From positions 128,001 to 192,000 of the forward strand of contig CAWDPO010000043.1 in assembly GCA_963804165.1 (NCBI GenBank): DNA of 64,000 bases, given 5' to 3'. The notes beneath the pieces were generated by a model. That model had not been told where the DNA came from. It worked only from the letters and a program-made list of their open reading frames with translations, and ran no database searches. The position numbers and the translations under genes are program-made. This DNA comes from an uncultured delta proteobacterium (GTDB taxonomy: Bacteria; Desulfobacterota; Binatia; UBA9968). The stretch's first letter is position 1; each line of letters starts with the position of its first letter. Shown here piece after piece: positions 1 through 45,391 of this stretch.

Positions 1-309
1 ACTCGCATTGAACTGAAGATATCGCATGATGAATTATCCGAGATGGTCGGAACAACTCGGCCGCGGGTCAGTTTGTTTATGCAGCGGTTTCGTAACCTCG
101 GGTTGATTGAGACCAACCTGGATCGCTTTCTCGTCATCAATGAAAAGAAACTCGCCGATTACTGGCTCGGATCCATAGCTCCCGGGCAGCCTCCCGGGTC
201 TCTTAGCGATTCTTTTCAACCCCGTTCAGTTATTAGACAGAAGGCTCGCTTCCAAGTCAGCCGGCAAGTTAAATCGAATCAATCGGGAGGTAACTTACTA
301 TGGGACTGA
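1..309 (+). CDS. CRP/FNR family transcriptional regulator, C-terminal HTH (5' truncated by window edge)
   Basis: Frame 1 reads TRIELKISHDELSEMVGTTRPRVSLFMQRFRNLGLI, a typical Crp HTH. The true stop may be near 178 if there is an indel. Confidence 0.8.
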   Translation, partial: TRIELKISHDELSEMVGTTRPRVSLFMQRFRNLGLIETNLDRFLVINEKKLADYWLGSIAPGQPPGSLSDSFQPRSVIRQKARFQVSRQVKSNQSGGNLLWD

Positions 310-16306: not shown

Positions 16307-17551
16307 ATGGAAACACTTTTAAATCTCGGTTTGGCCCTCACCCTCGGGCTGCTGGTCGGCGTCGAGCGAGGCTGGCAAGAGCGTGAGGCCGCGGAAGGCA
16401 GCCGGCTCGCCGGCATTCGAACTTTTGGCTTGATCGGTCTGCTCGGCGGTCTCTGGGAACTTCTCGGTCGCGGTTCAAGCGAGCTTCTCCTGGGCATTGC
16501 TTTTCTGGCGTTTGTCGTGCTGCTGTCGGTGGCACACGTTGCCGAGACGCGCGCCAGCCACGATTACGGCGTGACCACGCTGATTGCCGCTCTGATTACT
16601 TTCGCTCTCGGCGCCCTTTCAGTCCGCGGTGAGCGCGCTGTCGCCGCCACCGCTGCGGTGCTCACGACGATTATTCTGAGCCTTAAGCCGATCTTGCATC
16701 GGTGGCTGCAACATATTGAGCGGCAGGAATTGACTGCCGCGCTAAAACTCTTGCTGATTTCAGTGGTGATCCTGCCGGTCCTGCCGGATCGGGGTTACGG
16801 CCCATGGCAGGCGTTGAACCCCCACGAACTCTGGTGGCTCGTGGTCCTCATCGCTCTGATATCGTTTGCCGCCTATTGCGCCGTCAAAATCGCCGGCCCC
16901 GAGCGAGGCATCTTGCTGGCCGGGTTTCTCGGTGGACTCGTCTCTTCGACGGGAGTGAGCCTCCATCTCTCGCGCCTGGCGGCGGAAAGCAAACAACGCA
17001 ACATCATCGTCGCTGGAATATTAGTGGCGTCGGCGACCATGTTTGTCCGCGTGCTTTTCTTGACCGCGGTACTGAATCCCGGTTTGGCGAAATTGCTCGG
17101 CCCGCCCACGTTGGCCATGGCTCTATGGCTTTTCGGCGCCGCCGTTTTGCAAACGCGGAGAAGCGAGGGAGCCGCTCTCGATTCTTTGAAATTACGCAAC
17201 CCGGTCGAGCTAGGACAGGCCCTCCAGTTCGGCCTGCTCCTCGCGCTGATTATGCTGGGGACTCATGCAGCGCGGGCTTGGTTGGGCGAGCCTGGCATCT
17301 ATCTTCTCGCCGCCATCTCCGGCGTCGCTGACGTAGACGCCATCACCTTATCTATGTCGCGGTTGGGGTTTGGCGAAATATCGATTCGTTCCGCTGCCTT
17401 CGCGGTATTGATTGCAACGATGGTCAACACTCTGACTAAGGCTGCTTTGGTGGCGATCATCGCCGGCGCAAAGACCGCTGCACCCATTGCCGGGCCAATC
17501 GCTGGATGTCTGTTGATCGGCGCGGTTCTCGGCTGGTGGTGGGTCTACTAG
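16307..17551 (+). CDS. MgtC/SapB N-terminal + DUF4010 membrane protein
   Basis: GLLVGVERGW...AGIRTFGLIG; GGLVSST; GVADVDAITLS. Confidence 0.9.
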   Translation: METLLNLGLALTLGLLVGVERGWQEREAAEGSRLAGIRTFGLIGLLGGLWELLGRGSSELLLGIAFLAFVVLLSVAHVAETRASHDYGVTTLIAALITFALGALSVRGERAVAATAAVLTTIILSLKPILHRWLQHIERQELTAALKLLLISVVILPVLPDRGYGPWQALNPHELWWLVVLIALISFAAYCAVKIAGPERGILLAGFLGGLVSSTGVSLHLSRLAAESKQRNIIVAGILVASATMFVRVLFLTAVLNPGLAKLLGPPTLAMALWLFGAAVLQTRRSEGAALDSLKLRNPVELGQALQFGLLLALIMLGTHAARAWLGEPGIYLLAAISGVADVDAITLSMSRLGFGEISIRSAAFAVLIATMVNTLTKAALVAIIAGAKTAAPIAGPIAGCLLIGAVLGWWWVY

Positions 17552-17573
17552 TGTCGATGTTTAAAGCGCTCGA

Positions 17574-18437
17574 TCATCTGGCCGGCACGGCGAGCACCGG
17601 ACAGTGTGCCCCGCGCAGCACTCTTTCCGTCGTGCTGCCGCGCAGAGCATCCAAAAAACCCATATGCCCTTGGGTTGCTAGCACCATAAGATCGGGACGC
17701 CACTTCGCCTCAGCTTTGAGGATTTCGTCTACGACCTCACCTCGTCTTACGATTGTTTCAAAGGACCATCCACGCCCCAAAGGCAAATCAACGACGGGTG
17801 GCCTCCTATTGTCAGTTGCGATGTGAATTAGGCGAAATTCTCCTGCCACGCAGTTCAGGCCCAGCGCCAAAAGTAAAGCTCTGTCGAGCGCCGTTTGCGG
17901 ATCGGGATCATGATCAATAGGAACGAGAATTTTTTTTAGCGCGACCGAACCGTTATTGGGTGAAACAAATCCTTTTCCTTCATGAGGAATAAACAGCGTC
18001 ATCGCTCCCGACCGGCGCGCGAGAGGCTCTGCGACCGCTTTATACAACCAGCGATCGAGGCCTTCCCTCTGGTGCGTAGCCAGTACAATTAAGTCTGGCG
18101 GAAATCTGTGGAAATGCCGCAGCATGCTTTCGACAGGATCGGCACTTGAAGTTAGAATCTTCCTTATACCGAGTCCGGCTTTGGCGACTTCTTCCTGCCG
18201 AGTACCGCTGGGCAGGATACTCCAGCGCGTCAATGTGGCTCGCACAGCCGGGAAATCAAGCCAGTCGGCTTTCTCTGGCTTGGCTTGTGGTTGCACGTGC
18301 ATGATATCGAGCTTCGCTTTTGACTGCAGTGCAATTTTGAGGGCATGACCAAAGGCAACTTCGCTAGCCGAGGAGAAATCCGACGGATGGAAGATAACAA
18401 ACTTTCGACCAACCTGGTTTCTAATTGAGGACATCAT
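17574..18437 (-). CDS. Universal stress protein (tandem domain)
   Basis: IFHPSDFS; LATQGHMGFLDALRGSTTERVLRGAHCPVLAVP. Confidence 0.9.
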   Translation of the reverse strand: MMSSIRNQVGRKFVIFHPSDFSSASEVAFGHALKIALQSKAKLDIMHVQPQAKPEKADWLDFPAVRATLTRWSILPSGTRQEEVAKAGLGIRKILTSSADPVESMLRHFHRFPPDLIVLATHQREGLDRWLYKAVAEPLARRSGAMTLFIPHEGKGFVSPNNGSVALKKILVPIDHDPDPQTALDRALLLALGLNCVAGEFRLIHIATDNRRPPVVDLPLGRGWSFETIVRRGEVVDEILKAEAKWRPDLMVLATQGHMGFLDALRGSTTERVLRGAHCPVLAVPAR

Positions 18438-18565
18438 CTAGTCCAAATTCCTATCTATCAAGTCATTCTTTGTCTTTCGAACCACGCATGGCCGTAGCCG
18501 TAAGAAAAATCGCCTCAGACCAGAGATCAAAATCCTTGTCTATGCCGCCTCTCTGCGGTCGCGAT

Positions 18566-19432
18566 CTAAATGGCCGGTACGGCGAGCACCGGGCAATGCG
18601 CCCCGCGCAGCACTCTTTCCGTGGTGCTGCCGCGCAGAGCGTCGAGAAAGTCTCGGTGCCCTTGAGTCGCCATAACGATTAAATCCGGCGACCAGTCGGC
18701 CTCTTCTTCGAGAATGCGCTCGATCGCGTCACCAGGCACCAACCGTTGCTGCCAACGCCAATTGGGTTGGTGCGGCAAATATAGGGTCGGCATTCCCCGC
18801 TCCGTGCCCACGTGCAAGAGCTTGAACTCGATCTTGGGACAATCGAATCCGGTGGCCAGAAAATAGGCTTCGTCGAGCGCCGCTTGCGCATTAGGTTGAT
18901 GGTCCACGGGAATGAGAATGCGGCGGAGCGTGACGGAGCCATCGGCAGGCGAAATAAATCCTCGGCCGTGAGTCGGCACGAATAGGGTCATGGCGCGGGA
19001 GCGGCGCGCCAGTGGCTCGGCCACCGGTTTATGCAGCCAACGGCCAAGCCCCGCGCGCTGATGCGTCGCCAACACCAGCAGATCAGGGGGGTGATCCTCA
19101 CAATAAGTCACCATCGCCTCCAACGGATCGCTTTCCGAATAGAGAACCTTCTTCACGCGCAAACCGGTCTTGGCGACTTCTTCTGCGCTGGCTTTCGCCG
19201 GTAAAATATTCCAGCGCGCCAAGGTCTCCCGTACCCCGGGAAACTCAATCCAATGAATGTCGTTCTCACGGCCGACCTTGTGCCGTTCCACGTGTACGAT
19301 CTCCAGCTCCGTCTTGGCCTGCAGAGCGATCTTGAGCGCATGGGCAAACGCTACCCGGCTCGCTTTGGAAAATTCTGATGGATGTAGAATTCTAATCAGC
19401 GGCTCGCCGCCGGTTTTTGTTTGGTCATTCAT
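18566..19432 (-). CDS. Universal stress protein (tandem domain), paralog of the adjacent gene
   Basis: ILHPSEFS; MATQGHRDFLDALRGSTTERVLRGAHCPVLAVP; GGAG before ATG at 19432. Confidence 0.9.
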   Translation of the reverse strand: MNDQTKTGGEPLIRILHPSEFSKASRVAFAHALKIALQAKTELEIVHVERHKVGRENDIHWIEFPGVRETLARWNILPAKASAEEVAKTGLRVKKVLYSESDPLEAMVTYCEDHPPDLLVLATHQRAGLGRWLHKPVAEPLARRSRAMTLFVPTHGRGFISPADGSVTLRRILIPVDHQPNAQAALDEAYFLATGFDCPKIEFKLLHVGTERGMPTLYLPHQPNWRWQQRLVPGDAIERILEEEADWSPDLIVMATQGHRDFLDALRGSTTERVLRGAHCPVLAVPAI

Positions 19433-19461
19433 ATCGAGCTCCATAGTCGTCGCCCGCACCG

Positions 19462-19959
19462 TTAATGGGCGGCCTTGGGTTTCACCGTCAGCACCGGACA
19501 AGGCGCGTGACGTACGATCTTTTCGGCGACGTTGCCGATCACCAGACGCTTGAGGCCGGTTCGGCCATGGGTCGCCAAGACGACGAGATCGGTCCGCAAA
19601 TCTTCGGTTGCATCGAGGATCGCCTCAAACGGATCGCCTCTGCGGACGTGGTAACGGACTTTGCCGTAGTGTTGCGCGACATCGTGACAAAACTGTTTGA
19701 GCAAGACTTCCGAGTGTTCCTCCGTGGCCCGCAAGATCTTGGCGCGCCTTTGTGGCTCGCCGGCATAGACATCGATGAGCGCCGGATCCGTCTGCGTGAT
19801 TTCGCTCATATAGACTTCATCGAAGGGATTATGGATTACGTGGAGAATGTCTAGCGTGCCTTCGCTGGCTTCGGCAACCTTCACCGCCAGCTTCAACGCC
19901 TCCAAAGAAAATCCCGAAAGATCCACTGGGCAGAATATTCGTTTGAAATCGAGACTCAT
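19462..19959 (-). CDS. Universal stress protein (single domain)
   Basis: IFCPVDLS; ATHGRTGLKRLVIGNVAEKIVRHAPCPVL. Confidence 0.92.
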   Translation of the reverse strand: MSLDFKRIFCPVDLSGFSLEALKLAVKVAEASEGTLDILHVIHNPFDEVYMSEITQTDPALIDVYAGEPQRRAKILRATEEHSEVLLKQFCHDVAQHYGKVRYHVRRGDPFEAILDATEDLRTDLVVLATHGRTGLKRLVIGNVAEKIVRHAPCPVLTVKPKAAH

Positions 19960-19995
19960 GTTCGCCTCCCTGGGCTTTTAGATTGACTGAACGAT

Positions 19996-21807
19996 TTAAG
20001 ACGCCTTTCGGTACATATCTTCGATTAAGTCTTTGTAGCGCTCGACAATCACTTGCCGCCGCGGCTTTAGCGTCGGAGTCAATTCTTCGCTCTCGACGGT
20101 GAAATCGCGGTCGAGAATCGTGAAACTTCGAATCGCTTCATAGGGCGCCAGAACCTTATTGGTCTTTTGAATAATCTCCCGCACTTGCGTCTGCACCCAC
20201 GGATGCGCCGCTAGACTCACCGCTGGATCGATTTCAATGCCGCTTTGCTCTGCCAATCGCCGTACTCGTTGAACATTGAGAGTGATCAAAGCTAAAACGT
20301 GGCGCTGCCCCCTGCCAACGATCAGAGCTTGGCTAATCAGGGGGTAGGATTTCAAAAGGTTTTCAAGTTTCTGCGGCGCGACTTTCTTGCCCCCGGAAGT
20401 CACGATCAAATCTCGCTTGCGCTCCGTAATGCGCAAAAAACCATCGGCGTCGACGGCGCCGACGTCACCCGTGTGAAACCAGCCCTCGGCGTCGATCGCT
20501 TCTTGAGTTGCCAGCAGATCGCGGAAGTAGGCTTTGAAAATATTCGGCCCGCGCAGCAAAATCTCACCATCCTCCGCGACGCGACATTCGACACCCGCCA
20601 GCGGCAATCCCACCGTGCCGAACTTGAAATGCCCTGGCCGATTCACGTGGGATACCGTCGACGTTTCCGTCGATCCATAGCCTTCGAGAACGACCATACC
20701 CAACGCGTGGAAAAACCCAGCGATCTCCGGTGACAAGGGCGCGCCACCCGAAATCGCCATGCGCAACCAACCGCCAAACCCCGAGCGCACGCGCGAGAAT
20801 ATCAACAGGTCGGCGACGGCGACGGCTATTGCCGCCGACCAGTCCTGTCTTTTTCCTGCCAATCGCGCCTGCGCCTTTGCCAGGGCCCAATAGAAAAGTT
20901 TCCTGCGCCAGCCATGTTCTCTACCGAGGCGCAGGCGAATGCGATTGTATGCTTGCTCATAGATGCGCGGCACGGAGAAAATCACAGTCGGTCGAATCCT
21001 ACGAAGATCGCTCGCAATGGTCTCCACCGAGCGGGCGACGGTCAGCGTCCAACCTTTTGCCACGGCCATGAAATGCTCTAACCGGCCGAGCGAATGCGCG
21101 GTCGGGAGAAAGTGCAGCGTCACGTCGGCATCGGTTGAGGGCACCGCCGCATCGACCGCGCCGATCATGAATAGATAGTTAGCGTGAGTCGTTAACACTC
21201 CCTTCGGTGTGCCCGTCGTGCCGGAAGTGTAAATGATCGTCAGATCGTCCTCGCAACGAATGCTCTGCGCGAGATTTTCAAAAATATCCTCATGCCGTTC
21301 TGTGTACCCGCGCCCGATCTCCCGGAGACGATCCAGGGTGAGTACGGGTTTCTCTATTCCTACTCCCGAACTGCTTCGATCGCCTTCGATCACGATCACC
21401 GACTTGAGTTGATCCGCCGGGCTCGAATGGAGATCTAACCCGGCAAGGCGCTGCGGTGAATCGACAAAGAGAACCGTCGGATCCGCATGCTCGATGATGT
21501 GGCGCGCTTGGGTTGTCGTACTCGCGGCATAGATCGGAACAGTCAAGGCACCGATACAAATATTCGCCCAATCGGCGAGCAGCCATTCGACCCGGTTGCT
21601 GGCGAAGATCGCGACCCGATCACCGCGTTCGATGCCGAGTGACACTAAACCGAGGGCGATTTCGCGAACCTGGCTTAACGCTTCGTTCCAGGTCAGCGAG
21701 CGCCACTGACCGTCGCGCGAGAAACGATAGAGGACCTTTTGGCCATAACGCCCGGCCTGAGCGATAAACATGGCGGCGAGGCTGCTATAGGGAAATGCTT
21801 GATTCAT
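19996..21807 (-). CDS. Long-chain fatty-acid--CoA ligase (FadD15-like AMP-dependent synthetase)
   Basis: IIYTSGTTGTPKG; EGYGSTETS; GWFHTGDVG; ELTPTLK; likely start MNQAFP at 21807. Confidence 0.92.
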   Translation of the reverse strand: MNQAFPYSSLAAMFIAQAGRYGQKVLYRFSRDGQWRSLTWNEALSQVREIALGLVSLGIERGDRVAIFASNRVEWLLADWANICIGALTVPIYAASTTTQARHIIEHADPTVLFVDSPQRLAGLDLHSSPADQLKSVIVIEGDRSSSGVGIEKPVLTLDRLREIGRGYTERHEDIFENLAQSIRCEDDLTIIYTSGTTGTPKGVLTTHANYLFMIGAVDAAVPSTDADVTLHFLPTAHSLGRLEHFMAVAKGWTLTVARSVETIASDLRRIRPTVIFSVPRIYEQAYNRIRLRLGREHGWRRKLFYWALAKAQARLAGKRQDWSAAIAVAVADLLIFSRVRSGFGGWLRMAISGGAPLSPEIAGFFHALGMVVLEGYGSTETSTVSHVNRPGHFKFGTVGLPLAGVECRVAEDGEILLRGPNIFKAYFRDLLATQEAIDAEGWFHTGDVGAVDADGFLRITERKRDLIVTSGGKKVAPQKLENLLKSYPLISQALIVGRGQRHVLALITLNVQRVRRLAEQSGIEIDPAVSLAAHPWVQTQVREIIQKTNKVLAPYEAIRSFTILDRDFTVESEELTPTLKPRRQVIVERYKDLIEDMYRKAS

Positions 21808-21848
21808 CGCGTTGGCGATCTCCGTCAATGACCTATGAACACCAAATG

Positions 21849-22213
21849 TTAGAGCGCCACGCCGACGCCCACTATGACGAAAGTCCCGTCCAGCACCGGG
21901 TGCGAACTGTCCAAGAGTCCCCGATCCATCGCCACCTGACAAATGCCGAATCGATCGATCCATAAAGTTCGATGGAGTCAACGTCCCATTTGGTCCGTGC
22001 ATCGTTATAAAAGATCAGGATTCCCGCTGCTCCGTCTTCATCAATAAACATGGTGTAATCGATCACAGTCATGGGGTTTCGATCGGGAATTGTTGGCGGC
22101 AGGATGACTCGCTCGTGTCGAAGATTTTCTCCGACTCTGAGCTGCTCGGGCATCGCTTTATCGCTTAAGACCAATGCTGCGATCAAAACCAGGAAGCCGC
22201 AGAGTTTCTTCAT
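21849..22213 (-). CDS. Hypothetical exported protein (frameshift/deletion near 21960)
   Basis: Signal peptide MKKLCGFLVLIAALVLS; continues in another frame as WIDRFGICQVAMDRGLLD...VGVAL* ending at 21849. Confidence 0.55.
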
Positions 22214-22241
22214 TTTCCATCACCACCGTGATAACAAACAG

Positions 22242-22256
22242 GCAAACTATGTGCCC
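22242..22256 (-). promoter_or_regulatory. Sigma-54 promoter (-24/-12)
   Basis: Minus strand GGGCACATAGTTTGC, about 30 nt upstream of the ATG at 22213. Confidence 0.75.
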
Positions 22257-22428
22257 AGCGATGGAGCCCAGGCACAGTTAGAATCTCAATGAATGCGGCT
22301 GATGATTCGAATCAAACGCTCGGAATTTTCTCAGAGATGAAAATCTCTAGGACGTTTTCCTACTAAGAATGCGAAGGAAACTTGCGCTCGGCTCAGCAAA
22401 AGTGGGGGATTCATTAGGATACAACTCG

Positions 22429-22443
22429 CGGCACTCCAATTGC
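22429..22443 (+). promoter_or_regulatory. Sigma-54 promoter (-24/-12)
   Basis: CGGCACTCCAATTGC, about 60 nt upstream of the ATG at 22503. Confidence 0.72.
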
Positions 22444-22502
22444 GTCTGCAAAAGGCAAATTGACAACATTTCCACACGGGTAACCTTAGGAAAGGTCTAC
22501 GC

Positions 22503-23576
22503 ATGCGTACGTTCAGCTACGATAGGTCCCGGAACTCGGTACTATGGGGATTGGTTTTGGCAGCCGGAGACGGTAGAAGACTGCAAAGCTATATCCAGAA
22601 GCTTCTCGGCGAGAATCTGCCTAAGCAATACGTTAATTTTGTCGGCCGGCGTTCGATGTTGGAGCACACTATCCACCGCGCTAAGAAGCTCATCTCAGCG
22701 CGCCAGGTCGTTACTATAGTAAGCCGCCAGCACCTGCAATTCACCACGGTCCAGCGCCAGCTTGCCCGCCTTTCGCCAAAAAACGTGATCGTTCAGCCCG
22801 AAAATCGAGAAACGCTTCCTGGAATCTTGCTGCCGTTGATGCATCTCTATAAACGCTGTTCGGAATCCATCGTCGCGTTATTTCCATCGGATCATTTCAT
22901 CTTGGAAGAAGACCGTTTCATGGATTATGTGGCGCAGGCCGCCCGTGCGGTCGCGCACGATCCCTCCCGCCTCGTCCTGCTCGCCATCGAGCCGCAGGAT
23001 CCTGAAACCGAGTATGGCTACGTTGTTCCGCGTGCAAATGACGGCCACTTAAGCATTTGGGGGACGCGTAGCGCCGTGCGTTTTGTCGAGAAGCCTAATG
23101 CCGCGATGGCCCACGGGCTTATTGAGTCAGGGGCCTTGTGGAACACCATGATTATGGTTTTTAAGGTTCGAACGCTCCTGCAGCTCATAGAGAAGCTTTG
23201 CCCGGCCGTGTATCTCGACTTCAGACGCATTCTTCCGGCGCTCGGCAGCGCGAATGAAACGGAAGCTGTCAATGAAATTTATCGGACACTCGAACCCATG
23301 AATTTTTCAAAGGTATTCTTAGAACGGCTTGCTGCGGTCAGTCCCGAGCGGATATCGGTACTGCCGGTGCTCCAGGTATTCTGGAGCGACTGGGGCTCGC
23401 CGGAACGGTTGTTACGGACGCAGGAGCTACTGACGGCTTCACGTGTGGGGCAATTCAAGTACGTCGTGCAACGTCATGAATATCGGGCACTGGAAGCAAA
23501 TCAAGGCGACCAGGCAGCCCACGATGGAGTGATAGTCCAGCGGGCGTGTCATTCACGCGCGGGAGAATGTCTATGA
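22503..23576 (+). CDS. Sugar-phosphate nucleotidyltransferase (mannose-1-phosphate guanylyltransferase-like, divergent)
   Basis: LVLAAGDGRRL...PKQY; FPSDHFI; ETEYGYV; FVEKP; WSDWGSP. Confidence 0.85.
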   Translation: MRTFSYDRSRNSVLWGLVLAAGDGRRLQSYIQKLLGENLPKQYVNFVGRRSMLEHTIHRAKKLISARQVVTIVSRQHLQFTTVQRQLARLSPKNVIVQPENRETLPGILLPLMHLYKRCSESIVALFPSDHFILEEDRFMDYVAQAARAVAHDPSRLVLLAIEPQDPETEYGYVVPRANDGHLSIWGTRSAVRFVEKPNAAMAHGLIESGALWNTMIMVFKVRTLLQLIEKLCPAVYLDFRRILPALGSANETEAVNEIYRTLEPMNFSKVFLERLAAVSPERISVLPVLQVFWSDWGSPERLLRTQELLTASRVGQFKYVVQRHEYRALEANQGDQAAHDGVIVQRACHSRAGECL

Positions 23577-24007
23577 GAACGATATCGGTGCGCAAACGGC
23601 TCGGATTGATGACGCTTGTATTCAGCGGCGGTCTTCTGGCACTCCTACCTGTTGCATCGCCGCAAAACGTCCGCGCGCGCGAAGAGGCGGCGCGTATAGT
23701 GACTGTTGAGAAGATCGCCATCACGGACGATGTAGTTTCGGGCGAGGTGCTCAATCGCTCTCCGAATGTACTTCGTGATATCCAACTTTTGATTCGCTAC
23801 ACCTGGTTGTGGGACAACGAAACGAAACCCGGTAAGGACGATCCCAGTACATCCATCTACTACGTTTTGCCCAAAGAGATTCCCCCCGGTGGGCGCTTGC
23901 CCTTCACGTACAAACCGTCGCCTCCGTTACCCAAGAGGGTGGGTGGGCGCTTTGAAACTTCGGCCTCTATCGCCGGGTTTGCCGAAGTGATTCAGCAAAT
24001 TCGGTAG
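23573..24007 (+). CDS. Hypothetical exported protein
   Basis: ATGA overlap with the upstream stop; N-terminal hydrophobic signal; beta-rich mature part. Confidence 0.6.
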   Translation: MRTISVRKRLGLMTLVFSGGLLALLPVASPQNVRAREEAARIVTVEKIAITDDVVSGEVLNRSPNVLRDIQLLIRYTWLWDNETKPGKDDPSTSIYYVLPKEIPPGGRLPFTYKPSPPLPKRVGGRFETSASIAGFAEVIQQIR

Positions 24008-24025
24008 CCGCCAGAGTCAATTGGC

Positions 24026-25756
24026 TCACTCCGTCTCTGGTCGAATCTGGTAATGATCTTGGATGTGCGCCAGAATCTCCGCTCGATCGGGATTGACTCC
24101 CGCCGGCATGGTACGCTCGAGTTTACGCAGTCCCTTCGCTAGCTGTTGGTCGCCAATGACTTCGCCTACCCAGCGGGAAAAGTCACCCGCAAGCAAATGG
24201 TGGCGCAGCGAAAAAAATGGCAAGGTCTGCACTGCCTGGTAGAATTCCATCATATTATGGGCGGCGAGTGCCTTACCCGCATTGACGAAGCGAAATGCCT
24301 TGTCATCGGGCAAACGCGTGTCCGCGTATTTGCGGGCGTGATGTGAGTGCCCCGTCACCCGTTTCACGGGAGTGAACACTTCCCAAGGGGCTTTCACCGA
24401 ATTCACCATTAGGAGTCCGGCATGCGGCGGTTCCAGGCGATCGAGTGCATCGTGCACGGGTATCTGCAGATGATCATGCGCCTGTAGGATCTTGGTGACG
24501 AAGTAACGCTCTTCCTCGACTTTAGTGCTGGTAATGACGTGTGCGCCGATGGTGCCATAGACTCCGCTCGCCAATAAGCTAGGCCGATACGTCACGAAAC
24601 AAAAACTTCCGCTGGAAGTATTAAGATACTTCAAGCAAGGACTCTGTGCCTGAAAGAAGTAATGCGCCTCATCGATCACAATCCAGTGCGGGCAACCCGT
24701 GCTTTGCCGCATCTCCTGCAGCGCCCCGAGTAACTGATCGACGTAATGCAGTTGATCCTGAGGCGCCCGGGATGAGAGCACCAATATGATACTTAGGGCT
24801 TCGTTGCTAAGGAGCCTTGCTGCCGCTGCCGGGGAGAGCAAAGCTAGTTCAACTCCGAAGGTCACGACCCTGGATCGCTCTCCCATCTGAGCATAATCAC
24901 CTTCGGGATCGATGACGCAAACGCGGTAGCCTTGTTCGATGAGTTGCTCGCCAAGAAGACCCGCGATCCAGGATTTTCCCGAGCGGGGGTCACCGCTGAC
25001 GACAACGTTGGTACCGGAAGTGGGAATCGTGACCGGCTGTCCTTCCGAGTTCTTGCCGAGCAAGACGGTGCGACGAGCAGGAGTAGGCACGGCACCGCTG
25101 TGCTCCAACAAATTTCGGATATAAGCAGCGACGCCGGCTCCGCCCGGCTGCGACAACCGATCATCGGCGAGCGCCGTTACTGCGGGGATGGAACCGCGCG
25201 CGGCCACTCCGATTTCCGCATTCACTAGCATGGGTATATCGTTTTCCGCATCGCCGAAAGCGATCAAATTTCGTTCCGATCGTCCCAGCTCAGCCAGCGC
25301 TCGACGAATTCCGACCGCCTTATTGATTCCGCTAGGGAGAACCATCAAGGCAGCTCGGTTGAAGACCAATTGGCCGTCAATGCCGAACCGACGGATGAGC
25401 GCAAGAAGCTTATCGGCGTGCTGTTCCCAGGTGCCAACGATTACCGCCCCTGTATGAAACGGCACACCCAGCGCTCGTAGCTCGCCGAGAAAGTGCTCGG
25501 ATGGCGGTTCGCCAATTTGAATTGTCCGCTCCAGCCCGCAAAGATAAATTAGGGCTCCATTTTCCGCGACGACGGCATCGAAAGGCGATAACTCGTCGCA
25601 CGCGCGTTGGACATCCTCCAAGACTCGTCCCGTGACTAATAAGGTCACGAATCCTTGGGCCCGCGCTGCCGCCAATGCGGCATACAATTCGGGGGCAGGA
25701 TGTCCGTCAGTGGCTCCGGTGCCGTCGAAGTCACATGCGATGACACGGCAATACAT
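24026..25756 (-). CDS. HAD-IIB phosphatase fused to a HerA/DUF87-like P-loop domain and a DUF5752-like C-terminus
   Basis: ACDFDGT and FGDAEND (HAD); GDPRSGKS, IDPEGDY, WIVIDEAH (P-loop); AHNMMEF...HHL..GDFSRWVGEVIGD. Confidence 0.8.
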   Translation of the reverse strand: MYCRVIACDFDGTGATDGHPAPELYAALAAARAQGFVTLLVTGRVLEDVQRACDELSPFDAVVAENGALIYLCGLERTIQIGEPPSEHFLGELRALGVPFHTGAVIVGTWEQHADKLLALIRRFGIDGQLVFNRAALMVLPSGINKAVGIRRALAELGRSERNLIAFGDAENDIPMLVNAEIGVAARGSIPAVTALADDRLSQPGGAGVAAYIRNLLEHSGAVPTPARRTVLLGKNSEGQPVTIPTSGTNVVVSGDPRSGKSWIAGLLGEQLIEQGYRVCVIDPEGDYAQMGERSRVVTFGVELALLSPAAAARLLSNEALSIILVLSSRAPQDQLHYVDQLLGALQEMRQSTGCPHWIVIDEAHYFFQAQSPCLKYLNTSSGSFCFVTYRPSLLASGVYGTIGAHVITSTKVEEERYFVTKILQAHDHLQIPVHDALDRLEPPHAGLLMVNSVKAPWEVFTPVKRVTGHSHHARKYADTRLPDDKAFRFVNAGKALAAHNMMEFYQAVQTLPFFSLRHHLLAGDFSRWVGEVIGDQQLAKGLRKLERTMPAGVNPDRAEILAHIQDHYQIRPETE

Positions 25757-25782
25757 ATTCGAAATCCAGGATCCGAAGCTGA

Positions 25783-26268
25783 TTAGGCAGCCTTCCTTCT
25801 GCGCGGTTCCACCAGTCGAACAATCTGGGGCTTCGCAAATACAGTGAAATCTCTGTAGCGCAACCTCACCGTCTGGGCATGATTCCCGGCGTTGAAGTAG
25901 ATGTATTGATCCTTCTCCAGCTCGGGATCGACGTAGACTTTGAGGCCAAAAAGATTTCCAAATGGCGGCATCGCGCCGATTTCACAGCCGGGAAAGCGCG
26001 AGATAAATTCATCTTCTGTTGCCAATCGCACCCGGGTGGCACCCAAGCTCGACCGTGCCATATCCAAGCTGATCTTATGGCTGCCCCTAATCACGCCCAT
26101 GACCAGCGTGCCGTCGACAACAAGCATCACAACCTTGGCGATTTCGTTTCCGGACACGTGTTGCTGGGCGGCGATCTCCTGCGCAGTATACGCAAGCGGG
26201 TGGTTGAAAACCTCGTACGACACTTTCCCTTCATCGAGCATTTCCTTTAGCTTCGTCAAAATCGGCAT
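25783..26268 (-). CDS. YbaK/EbsC/ProX family aminoacyl-tRNA deacylase-like protein
   Basis: HPLAYTAQEIA; AKVVM; FPGCEIGAMPPFG; YFNAGNH; AAGGAGG RBS. Confidence 0.9.
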   Translation of the reverse strand: MPILTKLKEMLDEGKVSYEVFNHPLAYTAQEIAAQQHVSGNEIAKVVMLVVDGTLVMGVIRGSHKISLDMARSSLGATRVRLATEDEFISRFPGCEIGAMPPFGNLFGLKVYVDPELEKDQYIYFNAGNHAQTVRLRYRDFTVFAKPQIVRLVEPRRRKAA

Positions 26269-26332
26269 AACTTCCTCCTTTCGGCTGCAATGCACTAATT
26301 AAATTAGATTTAATCTCTGTTGAATATTGGTG

Positions 26333-26347
26333 GCAAGAACCGTGCCT
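26333..26347 (-). promoter_or_regulatory. Sigma-54 promoter (-24/-12) for ybaK-HAD
   Basis: Minus strand AGGCACGGTTCTTGC, 65 nt upstream of the ATG at 26268. Confidence 0.8.
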
Positions 26348-26543
26348 TAGATTCGGGCAAGACGTTTTCTATTTCCTGCACGATATAGGCTCTCCACAGA
26401 TGCACCCTCATGATTGAGGCGACCTCAGTTCCCACCGCTGATAATTCTCCTGGTTCGTTTTCTCACGCGTGCGAGCCGAGTGGCCCAATCAGATAAATTC
26501 TCAGTTTATTCGCGGGATTTCTCGCTGCGAAAATCGTTCACCG

Positions 26544-26558
26544 TGGCACATCTCTTGC
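26544..26558 (+). promoter_or_regulatory. Sigma-54 promoter (-24/-12) for the HPF gene
   Basis: TGGCACATCTCTTGC, 54 nt upstream of the ATG at 26612. Confidence 0.85.
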
Positions 26559-26611
26559 CGCTCTTTGTGGATGAATGCGGGCGCACAATCAGCAAAGATG
26601 GAGGAAGACAT

Positions 26612-27079
26612 ATGAAAATTCCCTTGAAGATCACCTTTCGTGACATGCCCCCTTCGAAAGCGATCGAGAACAATATTCGCGCGAAAGCCAGCAAGCTGGA
26701 TGTATTTTACGACGCCATCATGAGCTGTCGGGTCATCGTCGAGGCGCCGCACCGCCACCATCATAAGGGCAAGGCCTATGTAGTACGTATCGACCTGACT
26801 GTCCCGGGAGGCGAACTGGTGGTCAATCGTGAGCCCAAGCGTCTAGTGGCCGCCCCGGTGGAACATATAGAAGAATTAGAAAAGACATGGGCCGAAAGTC
26901 ATGGGCCGAGCAAGCATGCGGCACATGAGGATGCCTATGTCGCTATTCGCGATGCCTTCAACGCGGCGGCGCGTAAGTTACAGGACTATGCGCGGCGGCA
27001 GCTGGCAAGACTAAGGTCCATGAATCCACGCGGCTGCGTCACCCTAAACGGTCCTCTCCGAATTCTTGAGACGATTTGA
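26612..27079 (+). CDS. HPF/RaiA family ribosome hibernation protein
   Basis: GGAGG RBS; MKIPLKITFRDMPPSKAIE...CRVIVEAPHRHHHKG...AHEDAYVAIRDAFNAAARKLQDY. Confidence 0.88.
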   Translation: MKIPLKITFRDMPPSKAIENNIRAKASKLDVFYDAIMSCRVIVEAPHRHHHKGKAYVVRIDLTVPGGELVVNREPKRLVAAPVEHIEELEKTWAESHGPSKHAAHEDAYVAIRDAFNAAARKLQDYARRQLARLRSMNPRGCVTLNGPLRILETI

Positions 27080-27165
27080 GCGAGCGAACAGCAAGCCGCG
27101 CAACGGTTCCTGAAACCAGGGCGACGCGCCGTTCGGTTTTGGCCGTCTCAGCGGGAACCCGATGA

Positions 27166-27531
27166 TCATGCCGCACGCCCGTGCACGCCGTGCCGGTGTT
27201 TAGTCTTTTCCTCTGCGTGTTTGTCTTTCGTTTCGCGCAGTCCGCGACGAACGTACTCTGGGTCGAGGCCGAGGAGATCGCACACATTGTCGAAGGAAAA
27301 GATCCAGTCGTTACCCCTGTGCATAATCCACTTCTCGGCAGTACGGAATCGTTCTTTACCCTTCGGATCGTGCGCCCGACTGTATTTGCGATACTCATGC
27401 GCCGCGTCTTCAAGAATCGCAGCGACTAGCGCTCGTTCGGGTTCGAGGTGCTCGCTGCGGCGAAACGTATCCAAGTACTGCTGCGCCATTGAAGTGTCGC
27501 CGTTCATGATCGTAATAATGTTTTCCGCCAT
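27166..27531 (-). CDS. Conserved hypothetical protein (EPERALVAAILEDA / WIFSFDNVCDLLGLDP type)
   Basis: ORF with AGGAAGG RBS-like sequence and its own sigma-54 motif. Confidence 0.7.
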   Translation of the reverse strand: MAENIITIMNGDTSMAQQYLDTFRRSEHLEPERALVAAILEDAAHEYRKYSRAHDPKGKERFRTAEKWIMHRGNDWIFSFDNVCDLLGLDPEYVRRGLRETKDKHAEEKTKHRHGVHGRAA

Positions 27532-27585
27532 TGCGCTCACCTTCCTTTCTACTTTGAGTTTCGAATTCGTCCCTAAATAACTCAC

Positions 27586-27600
27586 GCAACCGATATGCCA
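27586..27600 (-). promoter_or_regulatory. Sigma-54 promoter (-24/-12)
   Basis: Minus strand TGGCATATCGGTTGC, 55 nt upstream of the ATG at 27531. Confidence 0.8.
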
Positions 27601-27660
27601 CTAGGTTACGCGGAGCTGATGCCGTGTTCTTCCCAGCCTTGCAAGAATTTGCCCGGCGCC

Positions 27661-27676
27661 TTCTCAGCGCTGAGAA
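27661..27676. promoter_or_regulatory. Perfect 16-bp palindrome between divergent sigma-54 promoters, candidate enhancer (UAS)
   Basis: TTCTCAGCGCTGAGAA. Confidence 0.5.
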
Positions 27677-27724
27677 ATGGCCATGACTAAAAGCCGAAAA
27701 GTCGAAGTAAATCGAGCGTATCAA

Positions 27725-27739
27725 TGGCATAGCCGTTGC
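27725..27739 (+). promoter_or_regulatory. Sigma-54 promoter (-24/-12) for hsp20
   Basis: TGGCATAGCCGTTGC, 72 nt upstream of the ATG at 27811. Confidence 0.8.
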
Positions 27740-27810
27740 GTTTGTTAACTATCGAATCGTTTAAATAGTTCACGCCACTCGATGGAATTGGTTTTCGGAG
27801 CATTGAGCCC

Positions 27811-28239
27811 ATGGCAAAGAAACAAAATGATTTGATCTCATTTCCCATGCATCTGCCGCGAGAAGTGGAACGCCTGTTTGATGAAATCATTCACCGTCCT
27901 TGGGGTTCTTGCCGAGAGATACGCGGCTGGAGTCCCTCCATTGATCTTTACGAAACCGCTGAAGCGTTCATTCTCGAAGCGGACCTTCCGGGGGTTAATT
28001 CCGACGATGTCACGGTGGAGATCGAAAATAGCGATTTGGTCTTACAGGGCTGGCGCTCCCTGGAAAAGAAACACGATGATGGCCAGTTTCACACCATGGA
28101 GCGCTCATCAGGGAACTTTGTCCGGCGTATCAAACTTCCCGAATCGGTCGACAAAAACGCTATTAACGCCGAGTTCCACGACGGCGTATTGCGGGTCATC
28201 ATTCCGAAAGCCAAAGAACGGAGAGAAGAAGCAAAATGA
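27811..28239 (+). CDS. Hsp20/alpha-crystallin small heat-shock protein
   Basis: WSPSIDLYET; ADLPGV; ERSSGNFVRRIKLPESVD; FHDGVLRVIIPK. Confidence 0.93.
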   Translation: MAKKQNDLISFPMHLPREVERLFDEIIHRPWGSCREIRGWSPSIDLYETAEAFILEADLPGVNSDDVTVEIENSDLVLQGWRSLEKKHDDGQFHTMERSSGNFVRRIKLPESVDKNAINAEFHDGVLRVIIPKAKERREEAK

Positions 28240-28519
28240 TCGGCAACACTGAATTAACATCCGCCGAACCTCACAAGGAATCGGTTTGCCACGCCCGCGA
28301 GCAAGCTCGCCGGCGATTTCACATCGACGCGCGATTTGACCCGCGCGACCGAATTCATCGGTCAGGAGCGCGCCCTGGCAGCATTGGATTTGGGCTTGGG
28401 CATCGGCGGCAACGGCTACAATATTTTCGTTTCCGGTCTGACCGGCGCCGAGAAGTTGGAAACCGTGCACCGTTGGGTCGCTGAGAGGGCATCCTCCAGC
28501 GCCACGCCTGGCGACTGGG
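28236..28519 (+). pseudogene. N-terminal remnant of a Lon-like (AAA_32/LonC-type) protease
   Basis: ATGA coupling to hsp20; FIGQERALAALDLGLGI...GYNIFVSGLTG...PGDW, then homology stops. Confidence 0.75.
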
Positions 28520-28529
28520 GGACAGTTGG

Positions 28530-28697
28530 GCCGACTGGTACGTCCACGAAACCACTCGCATCGACGACGCACTGACCCGTATCGAAGGCCGATACGGTGT
28601 TTGCCTCGGTTGCCACGAGCCGATCGAGCCGCATCGTCTCGAATCGACTGTCCGGTTTTTGTCCGGTCAATTGAGAAAAAACGTGAAAGTTTGTTAA
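28530..28697 (+). pseudogene. C-terminal remnant of a DksA/TraR C4 zinc-finger protein (not in ORF track)
   Basis: ADWYVHETTRIDDALTRIEGRYGVCLGCHEPIEPHRLES; no start codon and second CxxC degraded. Confidence 0.7.
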
Positions 28698-28721
28698 ACT
28701 TCGCCTCAGCGGTATCTAGGA

Positions 28722-28734
28722 AATTAAAGACTTA
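28722..28734 (+). promoter_or_regulatory. IHF-like site beside the att-like tRNA fragment
   Basis: AATTAAAGACTTA vs WATCAANNNNTTR, one mismatch. Confidence 0.4.
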
Positions 28735-28766
28735 GGTAGATTGTGGTAGGTGGTGAAAGGTTTGTT

Positions 28767-28815
28767 CCGGTCTCTCACGTCGGGAACACGGGTTCGATTC
28801 CCGTTGGGACCACCA
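28767..28815 (+). tRNA. 3' half of tRNA-Glu(CTC) only; probable att duplication (island boundary)
   Basis: CCGGT-CTCTCAC-GTCGG anticodon arm, ACGGG-TTCGATT-CCCGT T-arm, TGGGACC-A-CCA end; no upstream GGTCCCA acceptor strand or D-arm. Confidence 0.8.
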
Positions 28816-28955
28816 CAACGCCACACCTCCTTCGATCGGCTCAACTTCAGGGACTGCCTACTGCTGGTCGCACCGTTTTTCGTCCATGTATGCTATTAGA
28901 GGAGAATCGCTTCAACGATCGCGATCAGCCGGATCTCAGTCGAGGAGGTTCACGG

Positions 28956-29771
28956 ATGAAATTTGTCGGCAGGGGCCAGCCCCTCACTCGCGCGGGCCTC
29001 AACAAAGCGCTGGCAATCTTGGGGCTCGATGCCAACGATGCCGCCTACATTTGGACCGTCGTCGAAGTCGAAACCGCTGGATTAACTCAAGGGTTTGGTT
29101 TTCGCGTCGATCGCCGGCCGCAGATTCTCTTCGAGCGTCATATTTTTAGAAAATTCACCGACGGTCGCTTCGATGGCAGCTCGCCGGAGATTTCGGGTCC
29201 CGCCGGTAATTATGGACTGCTTTCGGACCAATACAATAAACTCGAAAAAGCTCTCGCCCTTTGCGCTAAAGCAAAGTTGGGAGTCGAGCCAGCGCTCAAG
29301 TCCGCCTCTTGGGGCATGGGGCAGGTGATGGGCTTTAACTGCGAAGTTGCCGGGTATAAATCCGCGGCGACGATGATTCGGGCCATGGTGAAGGGCGAGA
29401 ACGCTCATCTCTCAGCCATGGCTGGATACCTCAGAGCCAACGGGTTAGCCAAAAAGCTCGTCCAGAAAGATTGGACTGGCTTTGCCAAAATCTATAACGG
29501 TCCGAGCTATTGGCAAAACCGCTATGACGTTAAACTCGCCGAGCAGTATCAGCGCTTCAGTAGCGGCTCGCTGCCCAATTTAGAAATGCGCACCGCGCAG
29601 GTCGCTTTGCTTTTCTTGGGCTACGCTCCGGGAAAAATCGACGGGGTCCTCGGCCCGCGCACGCGCGCGGCGATCAAGAACTTTCGGATCGCCGCCGGTC
29701 TGCCAGGCAGCGAAGAACTCGACGGCCCGACGTATCAAGTCCTCTGCAAAAAAGCAGGTATTCGCCCCTAG
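28956..29771 (+). CDS. N-acetylmuramidase (DUF3380) with C-terminal peptidoglycan-binding domain
   Basis: GAGGAGG RBS; VVEVET; PQILFERHIF; SASWGMGQVMGFN; FAKIYNGP; LGYAPGKIDGVLGPRTRAAIKNF. Confidence 0.9.
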   Translation: MKFVGRGQPLTRAGLNKALAILGLDANDAAYIWTVVEVETAGLTQGFGFRVDRRPQILFERHIFRKFTDGRFDGSSPEISGPAGNYGLLSDQYNKLEKALALCAKAKLGVEPALKSASWGMGQVMGFNCEVAGYKSAATMIRAMVKGENAHLSAMAGYLRANGLAKKLVQKDWTGFAKIYNGPSYWQNRYDVKLAEQYQRFSSGSLPNLEMRTAQVALLFLGYAPGKIDGVLGPRTRAAIKNFRIAAGLPGSEELDGPTYQVLCKKAGIRP

Positions 29772-43472: not shown

Positions 43473-44526
43473 TTAAAGAATCAGCATCGCATCGCCGTAA
43501 CTGTAAAACCGATATTGCCTTCTCGATCGCTTCTTGATAAGCGCGCCGGACGAGATCCAAGCCGGCAAACGCGGCGACGAAAATCAGCGGCGTAGAACCG
43601 GGCAGATGAAAATTCGTAATCAACGCGTCGAGAACGTGGAAATAATCGCCGGGGCGAAGGTAAAGCCGCGCGATGCCTTCGTCGGCGACGATCTTGCCCT
43701 TTTGCCGCGCGATCCATTCCAGCGTGCGCGTGCTGGTCGAGCCGACGGCGACAACGCGATGGCCCGCCGATCTTGTCGCGATTGATTTTCTGCCGCCGCT
43801 TGCCGCGTTGAGCGCTATATCGCTCGCCTTCCATGCGATGATTTTCGATTTCGGCGTGGCGCACGGGTTGGAAAGTACCCGGCGCCGACGTGAAGGGTCA
43901 ACAGCGCGCTGCTCGATGCCCTCGGCGCTCTCAGCTCGGCAAACAGTTCCGGGGTGAAGTGAAATCCCGCGGTCGGGCGCCGCGATCGCGCCGGGATTGA
44001 GCCGCGTAAACGGTCTGATAGCGGTCGCGATCGAGCGCCTCCGCTTCGCGGTCACGGCGCACGTAGGGTGGCAACGGCGGCTCGCCGAGCGTTTCCAATT
44101 GCCCGTTGAAATCGCCGGCGTGATGAAACTCCAGACCAAAGCGGCCGCGTCCGATATCGCCAATCACTTCGGCAGTCATGTTGTCGCCGAAACGCAACAG
44201 GCTACCGACCCGCGGTTTCTTCGCGGCATCGACCAGCGCGATCCACAAATTTCGGCCTTCTTCAGGAAAGCGTTCGAGCAACAGCACCTCCACTTTGCCG
44301 CCGCTCGCCTTCGCGCCTCGCAACCGAGCCGGAAAAACTTTGGTATCGTTAAGCACCAAGCACATCGCCGGCGTCAAGAAACTCGCCCAAGTGCCGAAAA
44401 CACGCTATGAATGATTTCCCCGGAATGGCGCCGGATCACGAGCAGACGCGAGCCGGCGCGATCTCGGCTAGGAAACGCCGCGATGAACGATTCAGGTAAC
44501 TCGTAATCGAATTCCTTGAGATCCAT
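43473..44526 (-). CDS. queA: S-adenosylmethionine:tRNA ribosyltransferase-isomerase, frameshifted
   Basis: FDYELP; NDTKVFPARL; PLPPY; RYQTVYA; ITNFHLP; FYSYGDAMLIL*. Confidence 0.93.
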
Positions 44527-44540
44527 CTCCCACGATAAAG

Positions 44541-44566
44541 TAAGGGCACGGCATGCCGTGCCCTTA
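44541..44566. repeat. Perfect 26-bp REP-like palindrome just upstream of queA
   Basis: TAAGGGCACGGCATGCCGTGCCCTTA is its own reverse complement. Confidence 0.75.
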
Positions 44567-44614
44567 GCGTTTTCAAAACGGCTGGCAGAATCGAGTAGCG
44601 GCGTTGCTTGATCG

Positions 44615-45379: not shown

Positions 45380-45391
45380 GGCTGCCTCCTC

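Follow-up and report, generated by a model that had tools for sequence, protein, structure and literature searches.

We analysed a 64,000-nt stretch of DNA (the window; C43:128001-192000) from the genome of an uncultured delta proteobacterium of the Binatia (G000; 7.5 Mb in 46 contigs, 81% complete), in which an 11-kb block of genes is headed throughout by motifs of the sigma-54 promoter type. Three divergent intergenic regions, IGR1 (22214-22502), IGR2 (26269-26611) and IGR3 (27532-27810), divide the block into six predicted transcription units. IGR1 separates unit 1 (17574..22213, minus strand), which comprises genes for an exported 113-aa protein, an AMP-binding acyl-CoA ligase (FadD11-like), a universal stress protein (USP) and two tandem-USP proteins on the same strand with short gaps, from unit 2 (22503..24007, plus strand), which encodes an NTP-transferase resembling mannose-1-phosphate guanylyltransferase and an exported 144-aa protein (both units by Pfam and NCBIfam). 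To the left of IGR2 lies unit 3 (24026..26268, minus strand; Pfam, NCBIfam), with one open reading frame (ORF) for a YbaK/tRNA_edit protein and a second for a 576-aa HAD-IIB + HerA-like ATPase + DUF5752 protein, and to its right lies unit 4 (26612..27079, plus strand), encoding a short protein like the hibernation promoting factor (HPF) that matches S30AE PF02482 with 48.9 bits (cut-off 23.7) and stays below the NCBIfam equivalog cut-offs (TIGR00741, 22.2 bits, cut-off 40.9). Finally, IGR3 separates unit 5 (27166..27531, minus strand), whose product K is a 121-aa protein of predicted all-helical fold from a family with 13 copies in the genome, from unit 6 (27811..28575, plus strand), which contains a Pfam-supported Hsp20 gene (27811-28239) and an ORF of ~80 aa (28336-28575) that by eye looks Lon-like and N-terminal.

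Each of these units is headed by one match to GGCA-N6-TTGC, the -24/-12 element of sigma-54 promoters, and each intergenic region carries exactly one match per strand facing outward, as an initial annotation of this DNA had described. P1(-) (22242..22255, minus strand) and P1(+) (22430..22443, plus strand) lie in IGR1 before units 1 and 2, P2(-) (26333..26346, minus strand) and P2(+) (26545..26558, plus strand) in IGR2 before units 3 and 4, and P3(-) (27586..27599, minus strand) and P3(+) (27726..27739, plus strand) in IGR3 before units 5 and 6. All six motifs reported earlier exist and the minus-strand starts were given correctly, whereas the three plus-strand motifs begin 1 nt later than had been written. 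The GG and GC elements stand ten bases apart in all six sites, and the gaps from motif end to likely start codon, in the same order, are 28, 59, 37 or 64, 53, 54 and 71 nt, so that the 29-72 nt given before is reproduced as 28-71 nt. The window holds 11 matches in total against 3.42 expected (sd 1.95), a number reached by 0 of 100 shuffles, and six of the 11 fall within the ~0.9 kb of these three intergenic regions.

Genome-wide, the N6 pattern occurred 522 times against 313-466 times for the other spacings between N3 and N10, with 223 against 50-73 matches in intergenic DNA and 120 against 13-22 among those that were both intergenic and no more than 200 nt from a same-strand start. The canonical sigma-54 consensus, TGGCAC-N5-TTGC, has T before GG and C or T after GGCA. 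We found that the 120 promoter-position sites favour these same bases, which are outside the searched pattern, and that T precedes GG in 4 of the 6 block sites while C or T follows GGCA in all six. A consensus scan of IGR1-IGR3 detected no sigma-70-like consensus. The genome encodes an intact rpoN (495-aa open frame; match at C38:59408-59884, 210 bits), and the sigma-54 interaction domain PF00158 gave 34 matches, corresponding to ~29 full-length genes for bacterial enhancer-binding proteins (bEBPs). Both the presence of rpoN and a list of bEBPs had been named as checks on the initial annotation, and both speak for it; as it had also stated, the window itself contains no bEBP.

Conservation of the motifs, a further check named at the outset, was evaluated in 24 genomes of the same genus and 16 from two sister families. 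HPF orthologs have a sigma-54 site 60-83 nt ahead of their start codon in 17 of 20 loci, homologs of the NTP-transferase gene are preceded by one in 10 of 11, and the divergent site corresponding to P1(-) is kept in 6 of these 11. In MAFFT alignments of the DNA between the divergent promoters (11 loci for IGR2 and 7 for IGR3, with one row in each from the unpublished genome G005), the -24/-12 blocks are near-invariant, including P2(-) in IGR2 and both P3 elements, which are invariant in all 7 loci, whereas the flanking DNA has diverged. Within the genus, then, the -24/-12 elements are kept and the intergenic DNA around them is not. These sequence comparisons indicate that the six motifs are probably working sigma-54 promoters arranged in three bidirectional pairs.

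Between the members of each pair we found 16-bp inverted repeats of the form TTCnCA-N4-TGnGAA (hereafter boxes), which are candidate upstream activating sequences and, besides the -24/-12 blocks, are the only conserved blocks between the promoters in the IGR2 and IGR3 alignments. A position weight matrix (PWM) built from 36 aligned boxes has the perfectly palindromic consensus TTCTCA-N4-TGAGAA. IGR1 carries a single box (22328..22343, 14.7 bits, outside the PWM training set), while IGR2 (26429..26444, 18.5 bits, a conserved block in the 11-locus alignment; and 26460..26475, 17.0 bits) and IGR3 (27630..27645, 14.8 bits, also a conserved block; and 27661..27676, 22.5 bits) carry two each, separated by a 15-nt spacer and 31 bp from centre to centre, or about three helical turns. 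The second IGR3 box, a perfect 16-bp palindrome, reproduces the PWM consensus exactly and is the best match in the genome. The distance between a box centre and the GG of a promoter that it faces is 39-122 nt, which is the usual range for enhancer-binding proteins. Among loci that took no part in PWM training, a box equivalent to that of IGR1 lies 88-102 nt upstream of the sigma-54 GG in 9 of 11 NTP-transferase loci, and untrained tandem pairs 30-31 bp apart occur at C43:40430/40460, 73507/73538, 100326/100357 and 120040/120071 and at C5:26255/26286. The strict pattern TTC.CA-N4-TG.GAA is found 10 times in the genome, and exactly the six block sites, out of 141 strict sigma-54 candidates genome-wide, have the 7-mer core of the box in the 220 nt upstream of them. 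The recurrence and conservation of the boxes support their reading as an enhancer common to both promoters of each pair.

The other five window matches to GGCA-N6-TTGC (2717, 49110/49111, 58531 and 61328) have no box. The two at 49110/49111 are a single palindromic site inside a gene, that at 61328 overlaps a start codon, and those at 2717 and 58531 are intergenic and 300-360 nt from the next same-strand gene.

Scanning the genome with the box PWM revealed a box-rich stretch of ~145 kb (C43:12-156 kb), which has the 11-kb block at its right end and contains 5 of the 10 strict-pattern matches. At a threshold of 12 bits or more, 25 of 89 intergenic boxes genome-wide fall within C43:1-160 kb, where 1.9 are expected, and at 14 bits or more 18 of 43, where 0.9 are expected; four of the intergenic matches in this interval were training boxes. 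The same interval, 2% of the genome, holds 17 of the 141 strict sigma-54 candidates. Boxes flanked on both sides by outward sigma-54 sites number 12 genome-wide, 11 of them in the stretch, and lie in 10 intergenic regions: IGR1-3, six further regions of C43 (42.9, 71.1, 73.5, 85.2, 100.3 and 105.1 kb) and one of C5 (26.3 kb). The GG-to-GG distance is 127-199 nt in the nine C43 modules and 269 nt in the C5 module. A module at C43 125.6 kb has sigma-54 sites on both sides at a GG-to-GG distance of 321 nt, and one-sided sigma-54/box modules lie at C43 35.3, 39.1, 40.4 and 120.0 kb. At least 13 promoter regions with box and sigma-54 site exist in the stretch beyond the block. A similar concentration of boxes was seen in two other species, with 19 boxes in the 100 kb around the bEBP (described below) and HPF genes of G015 against 3 in a control 100 kb, and 16 in 80 kb of G014 against 1 in its control.

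By crude calls, the predicted units contain 65 ORFs, a number that counts fragments of some split genes separately. Pfam searches of 134 ORFs of the stretch together with the block identified 15 USP-domain ORFs, 8 with CBS pairs, 4 hemerythrins and 2 Hsp20 proteins. Further products are rubrerythrin/ferritin, pyruvate:ferredoxin oxidoreductase (PFOR), GAPDH, a glycogen-phosphorylase-like protein, malic enzyme, adenosine kinase, glutamate dehydrogenase, a NorB-like oxidase, a cytochrome bc unit and an MtrB/PioB porin with multihaem cytochromes, and two P-type ATPases, a formate/nitrite transporter, BON, YtxH and DUF2267 proteins and cardiolipin synthase are encoded as well. The sigma-54/box modules precede genes for USP, CBS, Hsp20, hemerythrin, rubrerythrin, PFOR, GAPDH, glycogen phosphorylase, malic enzyme, P-type ATPase and HPF proteins, among others. 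The initial annotation had treated the 11-kb block as the regulon; its co-wiring is supported, and its extent must be revised, the predicted regulon being about ten times larger.

The box-rich stretch also encodes a candidate activator, whose gene lies beyond the window, 34 kb leftward of the block. This 450-aa bEBP (C43:114490-115842, minus strand) combines a REC domain, an AAA+ domain and a Fis-type HTH_8 domain (PF00072, PF00158, PF25601, PF02954), the domain order of NtrC-type regulators, and contains a Walker A motif. Directly upstream of it lies a gene for a 754-aa histidine kinase with five PAS domains (C43:115985-118249, minus strand), the last two of which are near-identical tandem copies. 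Kinase residues 407-532 align to the haem domain of Bradyrhizobium japonicum FixL (PDB 1dp6) with an E value of 6e-29, and the alignment retains both the His of the HDSY stretch, which we take to be the proximal haem ligand, and the Arg that is replaced in entry 1y28, presumably Arg220 of the distal pocket. The best NCBIfam models for the kinase are FixL and, for a PAS domain, DosP, both below their equivalog cut-offs (for FixL, 380 bits against 850), and its neighbour is an NtrC-type bEBP rather than FixJ. We infer from this similarity that the kinase is a FixL-type haem-PAS sensor.

Several lines of evidence link this bEBP to the boxes. Orthologs with 80-93% identity are present in 15 of the 24 genus genomes, and none was found at E<=1e-120 in the 16 sister-family genomes; there is also a paralog group of ~60% identity. 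Among the loci listed in a separate search with the bEBP, one was a close relative (80%, from a Binatia metagenome-assembled genome) and the other 79, which were set aside, were 38-49% identical and of the general NtrC family. The bEBP gene itself has boxes in its leader, ~56 and ~26 nt ahead of the start codon, in 12 of 14 ortholog loci, whereas none of 5 paralog loci has them; this count excludes L144 as well as L139, for which no upstream DNA is present. A box precedes the HPF gene in 13 of 14 genomes with a bEBP ortholog (12 of 13 without G005) and in 0 of 6 genomes without one, although 3 of these 6 keep the sigma-54 site before HPF. Two of the HPF loci, L025 and L038, are independent of PWM training. 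In addition, the bEBP gene and the HPF-K block share one contig, 8-66 kb apart, in G013, G015, G005 and G014, and the kinase gene adjoins the bEBP gene in 12 of 16 ortholog loci.

Together these results point, with fair confidence, to three promoter pairs each served by a common box enhancer, one NtrC-type bEBP and its FixL-type kinase, within a low-oxygen dormancy regulon concentrated in ~145 kb. The bEBP would bind the boxes and fire both promoters of a pair by DNA looping, with the haem-PAS kinase as its partner. Because this kinase carries tandem FixL-type haem-PAS domains, we infer that the trigger would be falling oxygen, or else nitric oxide (NO), carbon monoxide (CO) or redox state, and the bEBP-driven genes together would form a programme of dormancy or low-oxygen survival. 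Sigma-54 promoters are silent without their activator and would therefore suit an all-or-none dormancy switch. The earlier proposal of one trans-acting bEBP for the block gains support from the same conserved 16-bp repeat between all three pairs and from a kinase/bEBP pair that is found together with the box and has copies of it in its own leader. That of a general stress/dormancy regulon keeps its dormancy half on the strength of gene content, the FixL-type kinase making low oxygen or redox, not general stress, the likely signal.

A number of observations weigh against this interpretation. At the promoters, P1(-) and P2(-) score low on the genome sigma-54 PWM (11.3 and 11.2), and the genome-wide gene calls came from our own crude caller (7,729 ORFs, 79.5% coding). 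A search for sequencing runs that contain the stretch listed six of DNA type, with small shares (0.05-0.15), and none of RNA. Four strong boxes, at C43:29674 (20.3 bits), 59530 (18.2), 23146 (16.0) and 52952 (16.0), have no sigma-54 site of at least 11 bits nearby; the promoters there may be weaker ones, or else the activator also acts in another way. As for the proteins, the canonical loop by which bEBPs contact sigma-54 reads GAFTGA, and the candidate has GSFTGA, with F and T unchanged and another second residue; haem binding by the kinase is predicted from alignment alone. The genomes compared are kin, so their counts are not independent events, and the 13/14 co-occurrence is partly circular because PWM training took in 11 of the 20 HPF loci later counted. 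Exceptions occur on both sides: the bEBP leaders of G011 and the unpublished G005 (2 of 14) have no boxes, G024 has a bEBP ortholog and no box before its one HPF match, and G012 (94% complete) has no ortholog at E<=1e-120, yet a box precedes its NTP-transferase homolog. This last locus (G012:C100:99953-104368, L157) contains a second HPF copy and the NTP-transferase homolog with a sigma-54 pair, and its box (14.7 bits, 88 nt upstream of the sigma-54 site) is identical to that of IGR1; the exception could be an assembly gap or cross-recognition by the paralog. Finally, the leader of the bEBP gene in G000 (C43:115843-115984; L048 1644-1785) has a moderate sigma-54-like site with an exact TATAAT in its spacer and two boxes downstream of the site. 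The leader boxes suggest autoregulation, and because they lie downstream of the sigma-54-like site this may be repression rather than activation.

We weighed four alternative explanations against these data. That the six motifs are chance matches or relics, with the genes read from unrecognised sigma-70-type promoters, draws on the small number of fixed bases (eight) and the low scores of P1(-) and P2(-); the shuffle test and spacing control, conservation at a fixed start-codon distance in up to 17 of 20 loci and the lack of a sigma-70 consensus in IGR1-IGR3 make it extremely improbable. The boxes might instead bind a modulator other than a bEBP, such as the CRP/FNR-family protein encoded at C43:127476-128309 (its end at window 1-309), with the true bEBP sites elsewhere or unconserved. 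This cNMP/HTH_Crp_2 regulator is encoded within the box-rich stretch, and FNR-type boxes have a geometry like that seen here, where arms of 6 bp around an N4 centre make up a 16-bp palindrome. However, sigma-54 promoters need an enhancer and the boxes are the only conserved elements between them, and tandem sites that are separated by three turns and whose distance to the promoter varies (39-122 nt from GG) fit NtrC-type enhancers. No box of at least 11 bits precedes the CRP gene, whereas the bEBP leader has boxes, and CRP homologs (E<=1e-40) are present in the box-less genomes G007, G012, G017, G018 and G021 and were not found in the box-bearing G006, G008, G011 and G024. We regard a CRP/FNR-type modulator as very unlikely.

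If the boxes are indeed a bEBP enhancer, the activator might still be another of the ~29 bEBPs, for instance the 60%-identical paralog at C40:200773-202116, which adjoins a duplicate HPF/ybaK/NTP-transferase block with a weak 10.0-bit box at the usual offset; the box in G012, which lacks an ortholog, points the same way. Against such a substitution, leader boxes distinguish orthologs (12/14) from paralogs (0/5), the six ortholog-less genomes have no boxes at HPF though 3 keep the sigma-54 site, and the ortholog itself is located in the box-rich stretch, so that we consider a different activator unlikely. The nature of the signal leaves more room. Haem-PAS sensors bind several gases, and the regulon could stand as described with a kinase that senses NO, CO or redox, or integrates signals through its five PAS domains, three of which have no assignment; the stretch contains a NorB-like gene, hemerythrins and a formate/nitrite transporter. 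The mycobacterial kinases DosS and DosT likewise respond to low oxygen, NO and CO, according to the available part of the text of PMC5309233. The best matches of the kinase are the oxygen sensors FixL and DosP, with the proximal His and distal-pocket Arg kept, and a signal other than oxygen is accordingly a possibility that we take seriously while judging it somewhat unlikely. Regulation of the pairs by the candidate bEBP in response to falling oxygen remains our preferred interpretation.

Turning to known systems, a literature search found no paper on sigma-54 regulons in Binatota, and in the available part of the Binatota genome paper (PMC8262859) the term 'sigma-54' occurs 0 times. The closest published system that we found is NmpRSTU of Myxococcus xanthus. 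As described in the available part of PMC11841059, NmpR is an NtrC-like regulator with a haem-dependent kinase that is induced in hypoxia and acts with sigma-54. Its enhancer consists of two GCGCA-N5-TGCGC sites with a preferred spacing of 14-15 nt, and its regulon of seven scattered promoters and 23 genes includes a CBS protein, a USP, a P-type ATPase with cbb3 oxidase, and hemN with hemerythrin (PMC11841059). To the extent of that description, both systems pair an NtrC-like regulator and sigma-54 with two inverted-repeat sites (15 nt apart here) and a haem-type sensor (predicted here), the regulator's own operon is autocontrolled in M. xanthus and the bEBP leader has boxes here, and CBS, USP, P-type ATPase and hemerythrin genes occur in both. 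They differ, on the same partial account, in the repeat itself, which is TTCnCA-N4-TGnGAA here and does not fit the NmpR consensus, in the sensory route, a protoglobin kinase phosphorelay from NmpU through NmpS to NmpR there and one FixL-type haem-PAS kinase adjoining the bEBP here, and in layout, since the ~16-20 promoter regions of the present regulon would for the most part be bidirectional and lie together within 145 kb, with those of HPF and Hsp20 among them.

The resemblance to the mycobacterial DosR (DevR) regulon is of another kind. DosR is a NarL/LuxR-type regulator acting on sigma-70-type promoters, its sensors DosS and DosT bind haem through GAF domains, and among its targets Rv2623 is a tandem USP, HspX an alpha-crystallin Hsp20 and Rv0079 the factor RafH. 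The available part of PMC5309233 gives the DosR regulon as ~48 genes in nine blocks under the haem kinases DosS and DosT, including Rv0079 (a ribosome factor of hypoxia), the USP Rv2623 and HspX. So far as that text goes, the likeness concerns gene content only, namely Hsp20, several USPs, a hibernation-type factor and haem sensor kinases. Here, by contrast, the promoters are of the sigma-54 type with an NtrC-type activator and a PAS-haem kinase in place of a NarL/LuxR-type DosR, and the regulators have no sequence kinship. With rhizobial FixL-FixJ the kinase shares the haem domain, to which its two C-terminal PAS domains align, and a similar HisKA-HATPase output; unlike FixL it has two tandem haem-PAS plus three more PAS domains, and its partner is of the NtrC type, not the FixJ type.

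Bidirectional sigma-54 pairs with a common enhancer are known from single loci of Escherichia coli, zraP/zraSR and hyc/hyp. As in those loci, outward sigma-54 promoters flank the activator sites here, whereas here the design recurs at 10 intergenic regions for one predicted activator. At glnAp2 two NtrC sites stand about three helical turns apart, and the tandem boxes are like these in forming predicted dimer sites on one helix face.

More tentatively, with the balance of doubt slightly against it, one FixL-type kinase and one NtrC-type activator may run a whole dormancy programme through ~20 sigma-54 promoters, most of them in bidirectional pairs around a common enhancer, as a convergent sigma-54 counterpart of DosR. 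Its ~60 or more genes would include ~15 for USPs along with those for CBS proteins, Hsp20s, HPF, hemerythrins and enzymes of anaerobic central metabolism, gathered in a conserved chromosomal stretch of 100-150 kb. Such a regulon would be among the largest and most clustered described for a single bEBP, and a second NtrC-type oxygen regulon besides NmpR of Myxococcus. The mechanism is ordinary sigma-54 biology; the novelty lies in how large the predicted regulon is, in its recurring bidirectional promoters and in its dormancy-type genes, all in a soil lineage that is uncultured. If the proposal is correct, an abundant soil lineage of the Binatia type ties its hypoxia and hibernation responses to one enhancer-binding protein, in a response that includes HPF, whose family carries the name 'sigma-54 modulation protein'. 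The simple cis-code, readable from sequence, would provide a set of testable markers for metatranscriptomes from soils alternating between oxic and anoxic conditions, and ~ten natural bidirectional sigma-54 pairs offer material on how one enhancer serves two promoters.

Regarding the genes of the block, the labels that the initial annotation gave to the acyl-CoA ligase, three USP genes, nucleotidyltransferase, ybaK and HAD domains, HPF and hsp20 mostly hold by Pfam. The ybaK-HAD fusion it described is in fact two separate ORFs, and of its hsp20-lon unit only hsp20 survives, lon being replaced by the ~80-aa ORF. ORFs 28236-28484, 28336-28575, 28526-28735 and 28108-28572 (minus strand) gave no Pfam match at E<=1 and no NCBIfam match; the second, by eye, resembles the N-terminal part of a Lon-type ATPase whose Walker A is degenerate, and is a putative truncated relic. 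The 576-aa protein (24026-25756, minus strand) consists of a Cof-type HAD-IIB phosphatase and a HerA/DUF87-like P-loop ATPase followed by DUF5752 as its tail, and with the adjoining mannose-1-phosphate guanylyltransferase-type NTP-transferase it may belong to compatible-solute or sugar-nucleotide chemistry. Across the wider scans, Rfam at the gathering threshold gave 0 matches in 17000-29500, and the expectation of a tRNA at the right-hand edge of the box-rich stretch proved wrong, with 0 tRNA genes in the whole window.

K belongs to a family with 5-15 copies in genus relatives. It has no Pfam or NCBIfam match, and its neighbours in the ESM Atlas fall into unnamed clusters that are commonest in Binatota. 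An AF2 model from 16 sequences has five helices with a mean pLDDT of 73.8, and Foldseek of this model against the PDB gave no match at E<=0.001 (best E 1.7). Invariant residues include R24, R25, W68, F78, F80, C84 and Y93. A role for K as a general bEBP partner was considered and dropped because its paralogs elsewhere in the genome mostly lack sigma-54 sites and boxes, the exceptions being one site before C23:174599 and the K fragment in the C40 block.

That C40 block (C40:200752-208494, L182) is a paralogous mini-block encoding the 60%-identical bEBP, a Na/H exchanger, the K fragment (72% over residues 77-121), an HPF (83% identical) fused to a cold-shock domain, ybaK, a 133-aa exported-protein ORF and an NTP-transferase (66% identical). 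It has sigma-54 sites and at most one weak box, and probably operates as a parallel circuit under an enhancer code of its own. Within the box-rich stretch, the box at C43:59530 precedes an operon for multihaem cytochrome, MtrB-PioB porin and cytochrome bc. At C43:14003 and C17:23852 an identical box-like 16-mer (12.3 bits) stands beside a DUF4372/DDE transposase pair and is a copy carried by an insertion sequence, outside the regulon. Gene calls are split at C43:78745-91661 and 44484-46951 (L044-L046), affecting USP genes, glutamate dehydrogenase (three ORFs), PFOR subunits and a P-type ATPase (two ORFs), and these splits are frameshifts or assembly errors.

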